Positions 1-34,890 of a stretch of 35,929 bases of DNA are shown piece after piece. The position numbers and the translations under genes are program-made. The notes under the pieces are model-generated. The model was not told the origin of the DNA and made no database searches. It saw only the letters and a program-made list of their open reading frames with translations. How positions within the stretch are numbered: the first letter of the stretch is position 1; each line of letters starts with the position of its first letter. The stretch spans positions 1-35,929 of IMG/VR virus record IMGVR_UViG_3300044878_000191; one strand, given 5' to 3'. Source of the DNA: a virus (taxonomy: Duplodnaviria; Caudoviricetes).

Positions 1-200
1 ACCGTTCCGTTTGTTTCTTTTACTAAATCCCAGTTTCTGCCACCTCCTAATGGTGTTATTGTTTGTTCTCCACAACCGCATAGACAAAGGTGAATTGCAC
101 ATAAATATTCTTCTGATATGTAAAGCTTTTTTTCTTCCAAAACATTTGGAACAAACTCAACAAATACAGGTTCTATTTTTACTTTTTTAAGTGTTTTCAT
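1..200 (-). CDS. Partial hypothetical protein, DUF6527-like (runs off the left edge)
   Basis: Own translation from ATG at 200: MKTLKKVKIEPVFVEFVPNVLEEKKLYISEEYLCAIHLCLCGCGEQTITPLGGGRNWDL. The HLCxCGCG motif is recalled from DUF6527. Not in the ORF track. Confidence 0.7.
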   Translation of the reverse strand, partial: MKTLKKVKIEPVFVEFVPNVLEEKKLYISEEYLCAIHLCLCGCGEQTITPLGGGRNWDLVKETNGT

Positions 201-301
201 AATTTTTTATATTTAAGTAGTTTTAAATCTATCTATTTTACCTTTTTATGGGTAAATAAGGGTTTTTATAAGTTATTTTAGCTTTAATTACCCGCCACAG
301 C

Positions 302-436
302 CTACAACAGCAGTTACAAGACAAACGGGCATAGTTATTAATTTTTTAATTGTTTTGTGTTTGGTTACATTCGGCAACTCGGAAGGCAATCAGGCTTGTT
401 TAATCCCGTTCGTCTTGTAGCCGCGAAACGTTATGC
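302..436. repeat. attC-like imperfect inverted repeat 1
   Basis: CTACAAC (302-308) ... GTTATGC (430-436). Arms 310-329 and 405-424 are complementary at 17/20. Confidence 0.75.
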
Positions 437-437
437 G

Positions 438-761
438 TCAGCTTACAAGAGCATCCCAATAACTAACGTGTTTATTAATGACTGAACCACCACCGCAACA
501 ATTGACATTATGAACTTGACAACCATTAGGTTTTAATTGTTCATCACAAACAGTTTTAACAACGAAAACTTTATCATCATCAAACCAAACTTTTTGACAA
601 ATATTGTGAGTTCCTCCTGAAAAATCCCCTTCAAGTTCAACTTGATTTTCTCTAATTCCTACAACCTTAAAAGGTTCGTGTCCGTGATAAATACCTTCGA
701 CATAAACAGGGTACATATTCAAAATTTTGTATCCTTTAATTGGTAATTTTTTATATTTCAT
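438..761 (-). CDS. Hypothetical protein (cassette-borne, Cys-rich C-terminus)
   Basis: 107-aa ORF filling the space between attC-like elements 2 and 1. Its stop lies 1 nt from GCATAAC. Confidence 0.75.
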   Translation of the reverse strand: MKYKKLPIKGYKILNMYPVYVEGIYHGHEPFKVVGIRENQVELEGDFSGGTHNICQKVWFDDDKVFVVKTVCDEQLKPNGCQVHNVNCCGGGSVINKHVSYWDALVS

Positions 762-794
762 ATTTTTTGTTTTTAAGTGATTAAAAAGCCGAAG

Positions 795-926
795 GCATAA
801 CAGCTACTACTAGCCACCCTTGCACTAGGCTTTGGTTATTAATTTGTTTTTTTGTTGTCAATTGTGCTACTCGGAAGTCAATGCGCTTTCTTGCACAGGG
901 CAGCGAGTAGTAGCGGAGCGTTAGGC
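795..926. repeat. attC-like imperfect inverted repeat 2
   Basis: GCATAAC (795-801) ... GTTAGGC (920-926). Arms GCTACTACTAGCCACCCTTGCA / TGCACAGGGCAGCGAGTAGTAGC. Confidence 0.8.
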
Positions 927-1103
927 ACAATTTATACCCAACTCTATGAAATCACTTTGTTTGGCTTTTTCCCACCTTGTAAATTCAGGACTTGTACTAA
1001 AATCAAAATCACAAGTAGTCGTTTGTATGGTTTCAACCATTACATCAAAGCCAAAGAATTTCTTTTTCAAATACCATTTACCAGTTAATCTTCTATTATC
1101 CAT
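921..1103 (-). CDS. Hypothetical protein (cassette-borne)
   Basis: Start moved to ATG 1103 (MDNRRLTGKW) because the longer start lies inside the hairpin. The TAA stop is part of GCCTAAC. Confidence 0.7.
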   Translation of the reverse strand: MDNRRLTGKWYLKKKFFGFDVMVETIQTTTCDFDFSTSPEFTRWEKAKQSDFIELGINCA

Positions 1104-1114
1104 AATAAAACTGT

Positions 1115-1238
1115 GCCTAACAAAGTGTATAAGCAATAGCCGTTAGGCGTTTTAAACTATTGCAGTTGTTAATATTTATGTTTCTACTTCTAATTAAGTT
1201 CTGTGTTCGGCTACTGCTCATACACTCAAACGTTATGC
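1115..1238. repeat. attC-like imperfect inverted repeat 3
   Basis: GCCTAAC (1115-1121) ... GTTATGC (1232-1238). Arms 1124-1142 and 1208-1226 are complementary at 17/19. Confidence 0.8.
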
Positions 1239-1244
1239 CTAATG

Positions 1245-1469
1245 CTACGAACCGCACTCGAAAAACTGAATTTCTCCTACAACCATCTTGTCTCCTATAA
1301 AAACTAAGTTAGGTTGGTTTTTATTTAAGGATTTTATGTTATCACCAATAATAATTATACCATCCCCTTCTACTATCTCTGAACCTGAATTTAATCCAAT
1401 AATAATTGAGTTAGTGAGTTTTGTTAAATCACTTTTGTTTTCTACAATATCTTTACTGTTTGTTTTCAT
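1245..1469 (-). CDS. Hypothetical protein with short IIIG repeats
   Basis: 74-aa ORF with IIIG/IIIIG/VFIG repeats. Ends just before element 3. Confidence 0.6.
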   Translation of the reverse strand: MKTNSKDIVENKSDLTKLTNSIIIGLNSGSEIVEGDGIIIIGDNIKSLNKNQPNLVFIGDKMVVGEIQFFECGS

Positions 1470-1497
1470 ATTATTTAAATGTTTACTGTAATCTATT

Positions 1498-2148
1498 TTA
1501 TTTTGAAGCGTTAGTTAAAAACTCTGACCATTGCTCTGCTATTGCTTTTGCAATTCCAGGAAAAGTTTTGGATCTTAGTTTTGATCTCTCTTCTTTTGGT
1601 AATTTCCATGCTTCTGCATACCAAGAAGGCATAGATTTTCCACTTGCAAACTCTGTTCTTTTTGGAGGAGTGACAATATCCGTAGGTTTTAATAAAGGTA
1701 ACCCTTTTAACCACAGGCAAGTCTTCTTTTCAAATGGATCTCCAAATTGGTACGGATTTATTATTTGATTAGGTTTTCTCCACTCACTGCTCATTATCCC
1801 CACTGGATTTTCTATGGCGACATGCTCACAATCAGCCTCTGCAAACATCTTAAAAAATTGTATAGCTTCTTCTCTATCTTTATGTCTTTGAATTGCTTTT
1901 TGTCCATACTTTTCTACATTGAACCATCTGTTTCCTGTCACGGTTAAGAAAGTACAAGGAGGAAAAGATATTATTAAATCCCATTTTTGTTGTAATAATG
2001 GAACTACATCTTGCTGCAGGTGCCATTCCGGATGACCTCCTGAACAAGGTAAAATATCACAACTAAAAGCTTCATGCCCTAATCTTCTAAACTCTTTAGT
2101 TACTGCTTGAGATTCTTCACAAGCCAATAGTATTTTTAATTTTTTCAA
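1498..2148 (-). CDS. Phage DNA cytosine-C5 methyltransferase-like protein
   Basis: N-terminal LLACEESQ SAM-binding-type motif, catalytic-type FPPC and IENPV motifs, C-terminal RSKTFPGIAKAIAEQW typical of this compact phage family. Confidence 0.8.
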   Translation of the reverse strand: MKKLKILLACEESQAVTKEFRRLGHEAFSCDILPCSGGHPEWHLQQDVVPLLQQKWDLIISFPPCTFLTVTGNRWFNVEKYGQKAIQRHKDREEAIQFFKMFAEADCEHVAIENPVGIMSSEWRKPNQIINPYQFGDPFEKKTCLWLKGLPLLKPTDIVTPPKRTEFASGKSMPSWYAEAWKLPKEERSKLRSKTFPGIAKAIAEQWSEFLTNASK

Positions 2149-2179
2149 AATAGTCTTATATTTTTGTGTTTATCTTTTA

Positions 2180-2302
2180 TTAAAACTTAAACTCTTTATT
2201 GTAGATCACTTCTATGTTATCTGTTTGGTGCTTATCCATTAAAAGAATTTGTGTTGAAGGATATAAGCTGTCCCACCATTTTTTTATTGTTTCTTTACTC
2301 AT
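2180..2302 (-). CDS. Small hypothetical protein (40 aa)
   Basis: Own translation MSKETIKKWWDSLYPSTQILLMDKHQTDNIEVIYNKEFKF. Fills the gap between neighbours. Confidence 0.55.
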   Translation of the reverse strand: MSKETIKKWWDSLYPSTQILLMDKHQTDNIEVIYNKEFKF

Positions 2303-2303
2303 A

Positions 2304-2630
2304 CTAAAAATAAACTATTGTTTTATATTTTGGTTCACACTCATCTAAACAGTGAGTTTCATGATTTATTTTAAAATATTTATCCTCAAGTTTTATAACA
2401 AAAATATCTTCTTCATTATCAACTATAAACTCATCAATATAGTCTTTCCCGTCTTTTGTACCCCAACTCATAACTTCTGTTAAGATCCAACAGGCGGTGC
2501 AGTAATCTTCCTTTATTTCTTTTAAAATTTGCTCTTTAGAAGTTATACTCCCTACTGCTTCTAAATTAATATTATCAAAATTATCTTCTACAAATTTTAA
2601 AGCTAGTTTAGTCGTCTCTTTTAAAAGCAT
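2304..2630 (-). CDS. Hypothetical acidic protein
   Basis: ORF track; tightly packed co-oriented gene. Confidence 0.75.
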   Translation of the reverse strand: MLLKETTKLALKFVEDNFDNINLEAVGSITSKEQILKEIKEDYCTACWILTEVMSWGTKDGKDYIDEFIVDNEEDIFVIKLEDKYFKINHETHCLDECEPKYKTIVYF

Positions 2631-2845
2631 AACAGATAAGGTTTTAAAAATTCTTCTATTGTTTCTTCAAAATCTAGTTCTGACCCTTCCCAGTTATAAT
2701 CTTCGGGATACTTTTCAACAAACTTTTCAGCTAATTCAATAGCTAAATCAATTTTAGAATTAAAGCTATCGTTTACTCCTATTGCGTCCTCTAGCAAATC
2801 ATTGTACATTATGTACCCTGTTACTACTGCTACTTCTCTATCCAT
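2621..2845 (-). CDS. Hypothetical acidic protein
   Basis: ORF track; packed. Confidence 0.7.
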   Translation of the reverse strand: MDREVAVVTGYIMYNDLLEDAIGVNDSFNSKIDLAIELAEKFVEKYPEDYNWEGSELDFEETIEEFLKPYLLCF

Positions 2846-2854
2846 GATTTAAAT

Positions 2855-3205
2855 TTATAAAATTTTGTTTATATTATCTAATAAGTTTGTCTCTTTACTG
2901 TATATCTCAGATATATATTTATCTGTTTCTTCATTCACCTTCTCTATTATCATATCCTTTAAATGAGAAAGGAACTTATCTCTTAATCTGTATCTTGTAC
3001 TGTAGGTAGTATTTTGTATTGCAATCCCAACGCTATCTACTAGAACTGTAAAATGTTTTTCGTCATTCTTTAATAGACAAATTGTATCTGTTGAAAGCAC
3101 TTTTAAATTTTTTGTGGTGGCCGAAGCATTTAAAAGTTTAATTACAATACCTTCTAACTTTTCCTCTTGCTCTGTTAACTTTAATTCTAAATTAAATAAT
3201 TTCAT
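2855..3205 (-). CDS. Hypothetical protein
   Basis: ORF track; ATGA overlap with the upstream gene. Confidence 0.75.
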   Translation of the reverse strand: MKLFNLELKLTEQEEKLEGIVIKLLNASATTKNLKVLSTDTICLLKNDEKHFTVLVDSVGIAIQNTTYSTRYRLRDKFLSHLKDMIIEKVNEETDKYISEIYSKETNLLDNINKIL

Positions 3206-10577: not shown

Positions 10578-10752
10578 GTATTTGTTTTATCGTTTGTAAA
10601 GCCTCCTTTTTTGAAAGAGGCTTCATACCTTCGGCTTTACAAGCTTTGTCTGTGTAAACACCGTTTCTGTCGTTCCAGGCTAACCAATCAATTATGGTTT
10701 CTCTTCTCCAAAGTTTTATCATTGGATAGTCTGCTAGTTTTAAGTCCTGCAT
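10561..10752 (-). CDS. Hypothetical protein
   Basis: IDWLAWNDRNGVYTD motif; packed. Confidence 0.7.
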   Translation of the reverse strand: MQDLKLADYPMIKLWRRETIIDWLAWNDRNGVYTDKACKAEGMKPLSKKEALQTIKQILEDNE

Positions 10753-11159
10753 AAGTATGATTCGTCTTTATAGGTTACTTCTGTATAATCCATTCTTAAA
10801 TCGTCTGCCACTCCTTCCCAATTAATGTTGTTTGCTATGTACCAAGGTAAATCTCTTGGTAAATCACCAGTATCCTCTGCCATTTCTTTACAGTAGTCTT
10901 CAAAATCATCGTAAGTAATAAGTGCTACACCGTACTCCCACTCAGAGCCAATTTCGTCTGCTAAAGATTCTATTTCAGCAATCTCGGCAATCTCATCTAA
11001 CCATAGCTCTTTCCAATCCTGAATCTCTTCCTCTTCAAAACAAATATCGTCGTACTCGCTTGTCATATCCTCATAGTGAGGAAACTCTTCTAAGAAGCTT
11101 TCTAATACTTGTGCTTCTAACTCTTCTCTTCTTTCAATAAGGTCTCTTGAATCTAACAT
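10740..11159 (-). CDS. Acidic antirestriction (ArdA C-terminal-like) DNA-mimic protein
   Basis: Very D/E-rich. FEDYCKEMAEDTGDLPRDLPWYIANNINWEGVADDLRMDY resembles the ArdA C-terminal signature. Confidence 0.65.
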   Translation of the reverse strand: MLDSRDLIERREELEAQVLESFLEEFPHYEDMTSEYDDICFEEEEIQDWKELWLDEIAEIAEIESLADEIGSEWEYGVALITYDDFEDYCKEMAEDTGDLPRDLPWYIANNINWEGVADDLRMDYTEVTYKDESYLCRT

Positions 11160-17854: not shown

Positions 17855-18475
17855 GCGCCGTTTGTGTACTCGATACACAATGCAAGTCATTAGCTTTCTA
17901 ACGGCAAACCGACTGTTATTTAAGGGAGTTGCGCCCAAAGGTTAACAGACAAACTATATCCACATAGTTGTTTTATGTAAACACGTATTAAATGCGCCCG
18001 ATGTGGCGCAACTTAATTAGCAACTAACTTATAACAGTACACGTACTGAAAAGTTATAATAGTCCTATACATAGACACTGCAAGCCGTAACGCTTCACTG
18101 TTACTATTTTTTTGGCTTGGTTAAAATGCATCCTTAAATGTATAGTTTTACGTCATTGCGTACCTATCCACTAACTAAGATTATCATCCGTAATTTTATA
18201 GTATATCGTTTCTACGTTTATAGTTTTTTAACGGCGCAAAAAAGCGTCAAAACTGTAAACTTACAAGGGCAAAAGCTCGTCTTCCTACCTTACTATAAAA
18301 TACATTAATTCAAATAACGAGTTAATAACACTAACTTAAAATAAAGTTATAACGTACCATTAACCGAAGTACTAAAAATATAGTACTTTTTATTGTATTG
18401 CAAATTTAGTTAAAAGCCTTTGCACCTCTTCACGGTACTGCAACTTTGCAAAGGTACGCAAAGTAATCTTTGCGC
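17855..18475 (-). ncRNA. Candidate large structured non-coding RNA (~620 nt)
   Basis: No credible ORF; more than a dozen nested helices visible by eye; tRNA T-arm/acceptor-like 3' module. Strand inferred from flanking genes. Confidence 0.7.
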
Positions 18476-19727: not shown

Positions 19728-20069
19728 CTATTCTTCGTTTTTACCTTCGACTCTACGATTAATTCTATCTCTTGTTCTTGCGTGTTGCCAATGAATAGCC
19801 TCTTCAATTTTTGTAATAGTTAAAGCGTTTTCACGACAAGGGAAAGCTTCGTTTAAACTTTGAAATAAGCATTTTGTATATTCCAACATATCTAATGCCT
19901 GGACCCCGTTTACACCAACTTCTGAAATTGGGTCGCTTTGAATGGTAAATTTTACAACAGGGGCAACTCCTTTTACATCTTCTAAATTTTCAATTTCAAT
20001 AAATGTTGTTGGAACGTTTGGGTACTGTGAATCATTGTACTTGTTTAATGCTTTTTCTACGTGTCTCAT
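19728..20069 (-). CDS. tad1: Tad1-family anti-defence (nucleotide-signal sponge) protein
   Basis: FPCRENALTITKIEEAIHWQHARTRDRINRRVEG matches the Tad1 C-terminal pattern as recalled (F..RENA.A.T..EEAL.W...R..DR..R.V.G). GV...D.LE motif upstream. Confidence 0.7.
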   Translation of the reverse strand: MRHVEKALNKYNDSQYPNVPTTFIEIENLEDVKGVAPVVKFTIQSDPISEVGVNGVQALDMLEYTKCLFQSLNEAFPCRENALTITKIEEAIHWQHARTRDRINRRVEGKNEE

Positions 20070-25396: not shown

Positions 25397-25435
25397 TTTT
25401 AATTTTTGTTTTTTACTATTTTTGATTTCATTTTA

Positions 25436-25466
25436 CAAATATACGAATAAGTTTTTAATTACGCAA
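25436..25466 (-). promoter_or_regulatory. Bacteroidota sigma-A promoter
   Basis: TTG-N20-TATATTTG. Confidence 0.75.
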
Positions 25467-25841: not shown

Positions 25842-26390
25842 CTATTTGTTTTTTAATTGGTAATTAATCATCATAACGTTATCCGCCAGGGACTCTAGGT
25901 GCCCAAACTCTCTGCCATCATCTTCATAGTTTCCTTGCAGTACTTCCAACAAGTGTCTTAGAGTGGCCTGCTTTAAGTGCTCTATACCTTCTGGAGTCAT
26001 TGGCTTTTTCCAATTGAATAGCTCGTACTTACCTTCTTTTTTATTAGCTGCCATTCTTTCGGCCATCTGCGTAATAAAGCCCCAATCTAATTCATAAAAA
26101 AGTTTTCCTTCTGTCTCCTTATAAGCCTCTTTAACAGGTTCTTTAGGATACCTTTTAATATTGTAGTCCTTCATCATTTCTTTCTCTCCTCGGTTTGTAT
26201 TTGGAATTACATCATCTTTTAATCCACAAGTACCGTCACAATAGCATTGAAATCCATTCAAAGGACAGTTTTTTAAGCTATTCATGCCTAAAGCAGTTCT
26301 TAGATGAGAATTCACAGTTTTAAACTTTTTACCTACTTCTTTTTCAAATTCTTCTTTGGTAACCTCTTTACCGTTTGAAACATACATCAT
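25842..26390 (-). CDS. dATP/dGTP diphosphohydrolase-domain protein (DUF5664-like)
   Basis: K..GKL.YEL...KY...NWKK...A.LRHL...GHL...A.N.M pattern. Confidence 0.7.
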   Translation of the reverse strand: MMYVSNGKEVTKEEFEKEVGKKFKTVNSHLRTALGMNSLKNCPLNGFQCYCDGTCGLKDDVIPNTNRGEKEMMKDYNIKRYPKEPVKEAYKETEGKLFYELDWGFITQMAERMAANKKEGKYELFNWKKPMTPEGIEHLKQATLRHLLEVLQGNYEDDGREFGHLESLADNVMMINYQLKNK

Positions 26391-27939: not shown

Positions 27940-27956
27940 TAAATTTTTTTGTTTTA

Positions 27957-27987
27957 CAAATGTACTACTTATTTTTTAATTGTGCAA
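27957..27987 (-). promoter_or_regulatory. Bacteroidota sigma-A promoter
   Basis: TTG-N20-TACATTTG. Confidence 0.75.
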
Positions 27988-32453: not shown

Positions 32454-32831
32454 CTATGTGTATAAGTCGTAATGTTTATAATTTATTTTCTCTGTTATTT
32501 CTTGTTCTAATTGTTTAAATATTTTCTGAACTTTTGGATATATTTTCATCTCTTTAACTTTTTCTTGCGCCGAATTATCAAAATTTGAATGGCAGTTATT
32601 ATTACTATAAAGACCACAAAGGTATAAAATATTTAAGTCGGAACACATTACAGACTTAAAATATTGCTTTGGAAGTACGTGCGATATCTCTGTAATATTA
32701 CCTTTAAGCTTTGCTCCGCACTCTTCACAATGTTTTGTCTTTGCTATTTCAATATGCTTTTTAAAAAACTCTGGTAAACATTCTCTTTCAGCTTTTCGTT
32801 TTTCTAAACCTTTCTTTGAGTAATTTTTCAT
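32454..32831 (-). CDS. HNH-family nuclease
   Basis: CEECG...SHVLPK...NILYLC...CHSNFD. Confidence 0.7.
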   Translation of the reverse strand: MKNYSKKGLEKRKAERECLPEFFKKHIEIAKTKHCEECGAKLKGNITEISHVLPKQYFKSVMCSDLNILYLCGLYSNNNCHSNFDNSAQEKVKEMKIYPKVQKIFKQLEQEITEKINYKHYDLYT

Positions 32832-32835
32832 ATGT

Positions 32836-32866
32836 CAAATATATGACTTTATTTTTAATTGTGCAA
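32836..32866 (-). promoter_or_regulatory. Bacteroidota sigma-A promoter
   Basis: TTG-N20-TATATTTG. Confidence 0.75.
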
Positions 32867-34842: not shown

Positions 34843-34859
34843 AAAGTGTTTATTTTTTA

Positions 34860-34890
34860 CAAAAATACTAAAAATAAACGACTTACGCAA
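34860..34890 (-). promoter_or_regulatory. Bacteroidota sigma-A promoter
   Basis: TTG-N20-TATTTTTG. Confidence 0.6.

Follow-up and report, generated by a model that had tools for sequence, protein, structure and literature searches.

The left end of this viral contig raises the question of whether a phage can carry gene cassettes of the integron kind and, if it does, which enzyme moves them. The window, i.e., the whole stretch of 35,929 nucleotides analyzed here, is an entire linear virus contig with an estimated completeness of 25% (CheckV). A preliminary description of the sequence had proposed an integron-like array with three attC-like sites near its left end, and that array proved real: three hairpin sites (S1 to S3) were found, relatives of the cassettes start at GTT, and the ends pair across cassettes. 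Based on the comparisons below, we consider it likely that the window holds the far end of an integron-like cassette array, moved by a compact tyrosine recombinase related to IntI that would act on predicted folded single-stranded hairpins.

Cassettes and hairpin sites of the array

The array comprises two whole cassettes (A and B) and a third (Z) cut by the contig end. The third (the ORF at 3-200 plus S1), which runs off the contig, is an addition to the preliminary description. The features are as follows:

1..430, plus strand: cassette Z, ORF Z with its own site S1, cut by the contig end
3..200, minus strand: ORF Z, >66 aa, with a weak match to DUF6527 (23.0 bits versus a cut-off of 23.6)
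305..433, plus strand: site S1, 129 nt (CAAC A...C GTTA), with a 20-bp stem, a bulge of 4 nt plus C, a T11:A pair and an A19·C mismatch
431..920, plus strand: cassette A, ORF A with S2, about 490 bp, ends GTTATGCGT and AGGCATAAC
438..761, minus strand: ORF A, 107 aa, conserved Cys/His, 129 homologues
798..923, plus strand: site S2, 126 nt, from the hairpin scan and weight matrices
921..1232, plus strand: cassette B, ORF B with S3, 312 bp
921..1136, minus strand: ORF B, 71 aa if it starts at a TTG within S3, or 60 aa if it starts at the ATG at 1103
1118..1235, plus strand: site S3, 118 nt, with a bulge of 3 nt plus C
1232..1247, plus strand: distal array end GTTATGCCTAATG
1245..1469, minus strand: ORF C, a 74-aa orphan in the array flank
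1498..2148, minus strand: DNA methyltransferase (PHROG 757), adjoining the array

All three sites have the form YAAC-A...C-GTTA. The length of about 125 to 135 bp proposed earlier holds for S1 and S2 but not for S3, and S1 starts with CAAC. Crossover is predicted after G430 in S1 and after G920 in S2. The three sites were the sole matches of a hairpin scan across the 35.9 kb (30 shuffles average 0.23), with a rule that was written after they had been seen. Weight matrices trained on 291 sites of other loci ranked their three right arms at the top (38.7, 30.8, and 18.1 bits, the next best being 10.4; the maxima in 6 shuffles reach 13.8). Of the left arms, S3 scored 35.1 and S1 22.0, and that of S2 (10.1) lies within the shuffle range. 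By folding energy alone, the bottom strand of S3 beats its shuffles (z -3.33), and S1 and S2 fold no better than theirs (z -0.93 to +0.38). A further candidate site at 17899-18056 had no support from the matrices and was rejected. Searches against Rfam gave no match at gathering score in 7 loci and only chance matches in window positions 1-3000; within 1-2400, no terminator-like sites and no excess of promoter-like sites were found. TAnnTTTG is a promoter motif of Bacteroidota, and as a sign of the cassettes' own promoters it is absent from 1-1575.

The pairing of cassette ends, as distinct from pairing within one hairpin, was verified as first described. In cassette B, GTTAGGCACA (920-929) and TGTGCCTAAC (1112-1121) match at 10/10 positions, and in cassette A the match between GTTATGCGTCAGCTT (430-444) and 786-801 is imperfect, with one mismatch more than in the ends of its relatives. 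At the distal end (1232-1247), the A at +7 is shared by 98% of 157 cassette starts. To the right of it a partner site was searched for and none was found. This end is the right-hand half of the original insertion site or else the beginning of a cassette whose hairpin was lost. The flank left of S2 (793-801) pairs 9/9 with the bases after S3 (1232-1240), better than with its own cassette start; the arms of S2 may have matched each other before cassette B entered, or the 9/9 pairing may be due to chance.

ORFs A, B, and Z are antisense relative to the classical cassette layout. ORF stops had been placed in or near the cores, and the stops at 438, 921, and 1245 do lie at sites; since the ORFs are on the minus strand, they lie at the GTTA crossover end of the neighboring site and not, as in classical cassettes, at the R'' box of their own. 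In ORF B, the stop codon is the TTA of the GTTA at 920-923, read on the minus strand. A sense reading of cassette B by the longest-ORF rule was rejected, given that the homologues (15 proteins among the matches listed, the window's own included) belong to the minus-strand ORF. The predicted structure of ORF A is confident (pLDDT 90), with a small β-strand N-terminal domain, for which Foldseek gave nothing at E<=0.001. A homologue of ORF Z with 79% identity occurs in L012 without a detected site. In L075 a homologue is found in the cassette that directly follows attI, and in L072 in the one after that. For the function of ORFs A, B, Z, and C, PHROG and PADLOC gave no match and Atlas scores were under 0.9; among 3 candidates, ORF C matched only itself and had no viral relatives.

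A site family with its own geometry

A pattern scan of species genomes yielded 48 loci, mostly in Bacteroidota. From loci other than the window, the site family was defined as YAAC-A, a 20-bp stem with T11:A and A19·C, a 3-4-nt bulge, CGTTR, and A at +7. S1 to S3 agree with this definition, with T11:A, A19·C, and the bulge retained in all three, and S2 has G instead of C at -7. In 246/280 sites a single A lies opposite a 3- or 4-nt bulge plus a C beside the core, followed by the 20-bp stem; among those 246, T11 occurs in 97%, A19 in 96%, and A·C at 19 in 81%, and position 12 is A:T or T:A. Some members of the family have weak pairs at stem positions 6-7. At the cassette ends (n=157), C is found at -7 in 75%, and a C·A mismatch at -7/+7 in 74%. 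The bottom strand folds better in 138/165 sites, and on it both A·C mismatches become G·T. The stems in the window pair at 17, 17, and 18 of 18 positions ungapped and gain nothing from an added bulge, so that S1 to S3 have no extrahelical base. Across the family, a gap-free stem is not universal, since one bulge improves pairing by 3 or more in 92/352 sites. Duplicate loci (L065, L066, and L100) were left out of two of the locus comparisons. RNAalifold on a MAFFT alignment of 19 sites gave no structure because sites with a 3-nt bulge and those with a 4-nt bulge do not line up, and base pairs were counted by script instead. The folded site would form a dyad of TAA-6 nt-TWA with a wobble at matching distance on each arm.

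Cassette boundaries and possible hairpin exchange in other genomes

If the cassettes are mobile, as first proposed, breakpoints should fall at G^TT, and homologues in other phages bear this out. Cassette B with its right-hand hairpin is common to L009, L010, and L011 (from 914/919 to 1235/1238, 90-95% identical), with different neighbors; the L010 copy, in another context, is 95% identical. At 12 of the 22 loci with ORF A homologues (3 viral and 19/20 metagenomic, L240 with 31% identity being left out), unrelated DNA gives way to the cassette at the same GTT end; the other 10, several of them near-identical to each other, have no such end. The right flank of cassette A is kept up to TAAC in eight other loci and is followed by at least four different hairpins. 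Cassette A also occurs without sites, with eroded copies in L228, L229, and L234, and its hairpin, along with 12 bases of flank, resembles the one in phage 6H. A contig from sequencing run X2 matches 820-923 and then continues with other sequence. The fixed gene order, without GTT breakpoints, recombinase, or circles, that had been named as counter-evidence was not found.

Pairing of the four bases outside the core was counted in 110 cassettes (the first 60 loci plus the window): it is perfect across the cassette in 82/110 and across one hairpin in 5/110. Homologous cassette pairs usually share the right-hand hairpin, which places the crossover at GTT and the hairpin upstream of its gene. The S3 hairpin family was found in 37 viral loci, heading many unrelated ORFs. 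Viral cassettes are antisense in 94/103 cases, and cassettes in isolate genomes are sense in 11/12. Dense antisense arrays were also observed in L026 (5489-16900, 25 sites), L017, and L042, contigs binned to non-Bacteroidota MAGs; the arrays look phage-type and the bins may be wrong. In these three, many ORFs start inside a hairpin and share an LNISDV-like stretch.

Excised circles were expected as well. Among the contigs of two runs (X2 and X1, the latter a possible source of the window), no circle or joint of the window's cassettes was found, but one cassette-only circular contig (L170) was. This record of 2203 bp has a 127-nt terminal repeat, and the circular unit of 2076 bp consists of four cassettes with matched ends (2/4 hairpins were found by script, the other two read by eye). 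One cassette has the hairpin and ends of cassette B with a different ORF; the others encode a methyltransferase 78% identical to that of the window, an HNH-like protein, and a zinc-finger-like protein. The terminal overlap begins mid-ORF and ends mid-hairpin, which, in this one assembly record, would fit an isolated circle better than a collapsed repeat. L170 is thus a candidate excised cassette multimer.

A compact recombinase and its attI-like site

The preliminary description had noted that no integrase is present, and this was borne out: neither a recombinase nor an attI motif was found in the window, the left end of which is cut, and a recombinase may lie just beyond it. The co-occurring tyrosine recombinase that had been suggested as a check does accompany such arrays in other phages, and a recombinase lies beside the sites in about ten of the 48 pattern-scan loci. 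The array-adjacent enzymes (~265 aa in phages) have the catalytic residues and Phage_int_SAM_4 (PF13495). On TIGR02249 they score 133-161 bits (4 phage enzymes) and 198-226 bits (7 chromosomal ones), the cut-off being 265, and they align to VchIntI4 in two pieces, with about 43-48 residues absent where the IntI insertion sits. The phage enzyme profile (A4) identified 80 viral recombinase loci. Of those with >=2 kb upstream, 49/50 have sites there; sites downstream occur in 8/78 loci, and an attI-like motif (about ATATAGTAG^TTA, a loose pattern without a null) precedes the enzyme gene in 72/80. These counts overstate independence, since the 15 enzymes used to build the profile were themselves array-adjacent, with some of their contigs again present in the set of 80, and the loci are not independent lineages. 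Nearly all sites (292/306) are upstream of the enzyme and in one polarity. For sites of the S3 family, the enzyme is on the left in 7/30 loci and on the right in 0/37; with two or more sites to the left, it is on the left in 6/10 (by eye). Genes in the arrays of other phages all read towards the enzyme, and the arrays start at the attI-like motif just upstream of it.

Given this polarity, the attI site and the enzyme gene of our array would lie to the left of base 1, if the phage has them. We slightly favor an enzyme encoded just there. Supply by the host or a co-infecting phage is nearly as probable, since complete or near-complete phages with sites and without the enzyme exist (6H, FPSV-D35, phi18:3, G135, and G137). 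The recombinase beside an S3-type site in phi18:3 was rejected as a cassette enzyme, being a different, 428-aa integrase. A cultured phage, Cellulophaga phage Ingeline_1 (L377:6200-7792), has an enzyme with 41% identity and eroded sites upstream; the accessible text of its description annotates it simply as an integrase (PMC8776804). This phage could serve as a source of the enzyme for laboratory work. Some chromosomal arrays (L058:7606-10127, L039, and L059) have the enzyme divergent from the array, in the style of classical integrons, and most others are co-oriented. A chromosomal array of these sites in L373 (G113:C1:1874000-1893999) is interrupted by several insertions, each consisting of a 300-aa tyrosine recombinase gene with a transposase-like ORF behind it.

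Comparison with known systems

Integrons are generally considered rare in Bacteroidota and in phages, as the preliminary description also held; according to the accessible parts of the reports, standard tools identified one complete integron in Bacteroidetes (PMC9024848) and integrons in 21/10,705 phages (PMC9892861). Our results contradict this for arrays of the present kind, which are common in both: Bacteroidota and their phages alike have arrays filled with this site family, and the phage-encoded enzyme occurs in dozens of viral contigs.

The attC integron signature originally proposed stands with regard to the cores and mobility, but the geometry differs, the enzyme is not IntI, and the genes are antisense to the classical layout. 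As in classical integrons, so far as the sources cited here describe them, a tyrosine recombinase near an attI-like site accompanies, in other phages, cassettes of ORF plus hairpin with G^TT boundaries, the ends pair in the circle, the bottom strand folds better, and Phage_int_SAM_4 is common to the enzyme and IntI. In the window, the sites have AAC/GTT cores, and both ends of a single cassette contribute to the R box. Classical attC sites are described, in the accessible text, with 5-6 unpaired bases per arm and two or three extrahelical bases contacting the IntI insertion (PMC5027507, PMC3053210). In contrast, S1 to S3 have next to the R box a loop of 1 nt on one arm versus 4-5 nt on the other, no unpaired 5-6-nt spacer in either arm, no extrahelical bases near L'', and fixed A·C mismatches. 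The array enzymes are below the TIGR02249 cut-off and without the IntI insertion, no IntI with the integron-specific domain is encoded in the window, where the three sites stand without an integrase, no sense ORF ends at its own attC, and no Pc is evident.

Parts of this system are known, namely phage CALINs with same-family sites in Polaribacter phage P12002L and the Bacteroidales rAID-1, and it is otherwise scarcely described. Qi et al. 2023 reported 17 phage CALINs (PMC9892861). P12002L is a Flavobacteriaceae phage whose orphan array includes cassettes for methyltransferases; its attC1 has the geometry of our family, and its cassette shares the end cores of cassette B (GTTAGGC / GCCTAAC). 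Unlike here, Qi et al. treat these sites as classical attC and ascribe divergent ones to mosaicism, and the accessible part of their account does not describe a cognate enzyme, attI, an antisense rule, or the family (PMC9892861). In rAID-1 (Ross et al. 2019), as far as its preprint could be consulted, 226/423 Bacteroidales genomes have a XerD-like recombinase gene with co-directional genes behind it, between which integron-like motifs occur (bioRxiv 10.1101/471110), the defining criterion being a 5' XerD-like recombinase >44% identical to BF9343_RS08045 with co-directional downstream genes. Its biogenesis and mechanism are stated as undefined in the accessible text of a 2025 preprint (PMC12247911). 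Bacteroidota chromosomes in our data show the rAID-1 layout with the site family defined here, and 60/121 sampled genomes of the order of G003 match profile A3 at E<=1e-70; rAID-1 is described as chromosomal, with sense immunity genes, whereas the array in the window is phage-borne, antisense, and without an enzyme, and phage arrays lie upstream of theirs. XerCD is reported, in the accessible text, to recombine folded single-stranded phage sites (PMC5027507). Our system shares with XerCD/dif a compact Xer-like enzyme and a 6-nt center between TAA and TWA in the folded site, and differs in having a dedicated enzyme and multi-cassette arrays instead of genome integration at dif. The dif site has an 11-6-11 layout. 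In the literature covered (subscription journals and bioRxiv supplements, e.g., Ross 2019 Fig. S4, being outside its scope), we found neither the enzyme encoded by phages nor the antisense rule or the geometry of the sites described.

Proposed mechanism and alternatives

Boundaries, geometry, orientation, and linkage to the enzyme were read from comparisons between genomes, from which we infer each catalytic step. The folding bias and the GTT breakpoints point to bottom-strand recombination. The bottom strand would fold to an 11-6-11, dif-like core of TAA-6 nt-TWA, with the 3-4-nt bulge and the two G·T wobbles marking the strand and so standing in for the extrahelical bases read by IntI. The compact recombinase would bind this folded strand and exchange it at G^TT with attI or another site, thereby excising cassettes as circles or inserting them. 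As in integrons, the resulting junction would be resolved by replication, and the entry point of new cassettes would be immediately upstream of the gene for the enzyme. Read-through of the backwards-facing cassette genes from phage promoters further upstream would explain both their reversed orientation and the absence of promoters from 1-1575. Occasional top-strand exchange at the TAAC end may swap hairpins between cassettes, such exchange being a minor route in integrons according to the accessible text of PMC5027507.

One alternative is a classical CALIN, in which ordinary attC sites are recombined by a true host IntI, as Qi et al. 2023 proposed for phage CALINs. The core logic is the same (AAC/GTT, end pairing, bottom-strand bias), the R box of cassette B fits RYYYAAC/GTTRRRY, and, in the accessible part of the report, HattCI called the P12002L sites attC and attC2 recombined with IntI1 (PMC9892861). 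But the cloned attC2 represents, on our reading of the same source, the opposite strand of a site that is eroded, and attC1, the intact family member, is the sole one of six sites without a verified IntI1 junction (PMC9892861). Together with the gap-free stems and the loop of 1 versus 4-5 nt in the window's sites and the insertion-less, below-cut-off enzymes beside arrays, this makes a classical CALIN very unlikely. That the array is a fossil, which entered through this system in an ancestor and now moves only by homologous or illegitimate recombination at shared hairpins and flanks, would agree with the missing enzyme, the weak folding of S1 and S2, the mismatched ends and eroded copies of cassette A, and its resemblance to phage 6H in both hairpin and flanking bases. 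However, none of the three sites has lost T11:A, A19·C, or the bulge, cassette B retains fully matched ends and a close copy in another context, and hairpins are too unlike each other (background arm identity 0.56) to favor homologous exchange, with breakpoints on the cores; we regard a fossil array as very unlikely.

The hairpins could instead be RNA elements or MITE-like repeats serving as expression signals, with cores derived from host XerCD or from chance. The core does resemble the dif layout and some ORFs begin inside a hairpin, but neither Rfam nor the terminator and promoter searches gave support, a repeat does not predict pairing that runs across cassettes, and a dedicated enzyme sits in a fixed position, so that this explanation is highly improbable.

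An array moved by the compact recombinase thus remains the preferred reading. If the enzyme works as predicted, phages would shuffle accessory genes (e.g., methyltransferases) with a dedicated system, single-strand hairpin recombination would not need the IntI insertion, and pairs of gene and hairpin found both joined and apart would make the origin of cassettes testable. A more far-reaching and rather doubtful proposal is that phages of Bacteroidota operate integrons of their own, served by a minimal recombinase, and that hairpin transfer at the TAAC end turns ordinary phage genes into cassettes, for which we point to ORF A (site-less in 10/22 loci, a cassette in 12/22), S3 on many unrelated genes, and four-cassette circles in viromes. 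If true, it would provide a testable route for how integron cassettes arise, and an IntI-like enzyme predating the integron-specific insertion. The window itself is a small, truncated example, of value for cassettes A and B, both breakpoints of which can be seen in relatives.

Phage setting

The contig encodes phage genes for a UvsX-like recombinase, a helicase, PhoH, endonuclease VII, and the methyltransferase, with nearly all genes on the minus strand. The methyltransferase has no sites here; other phages carry it as a cassette. For the phage backbone, viral and metagenome loci yielded no close relative, and a search of a plasmid collection with the window sequence gave no match. The host is likely a member of the Bacteroidota, since phages of Flavobacterium or Cellulophaga make up 12/14 of the phage records with a match to 250-1300 and a promoter-like repeat is present in four copies. 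This 36-nt intergenic repeat (25431-25466, 27952-27987, 32831-32866, and 34855-34890) reads TTG...TATATTTG on the coding (minus) strand and resembles the Bacteroidota-type promoter consensus, TTG...TAnnTTTG; the four copies are probably early promoters of the phage. Weak Pfam matches, just below or under the cut-off, at 10740-11159, 19728-20069, and 25842-26390 (ArdA antirestriction, Acb2/Tad1 hairpin, and dATP/dGTP diphosphohydrolase) suggest possible counter-defence genes. Finally, two other phages (L301:1326-1646 and L313:893-1246) have homologues of the window genes at 2304-2630 and 2855-3205 immediately downstream of their compact recombinase.
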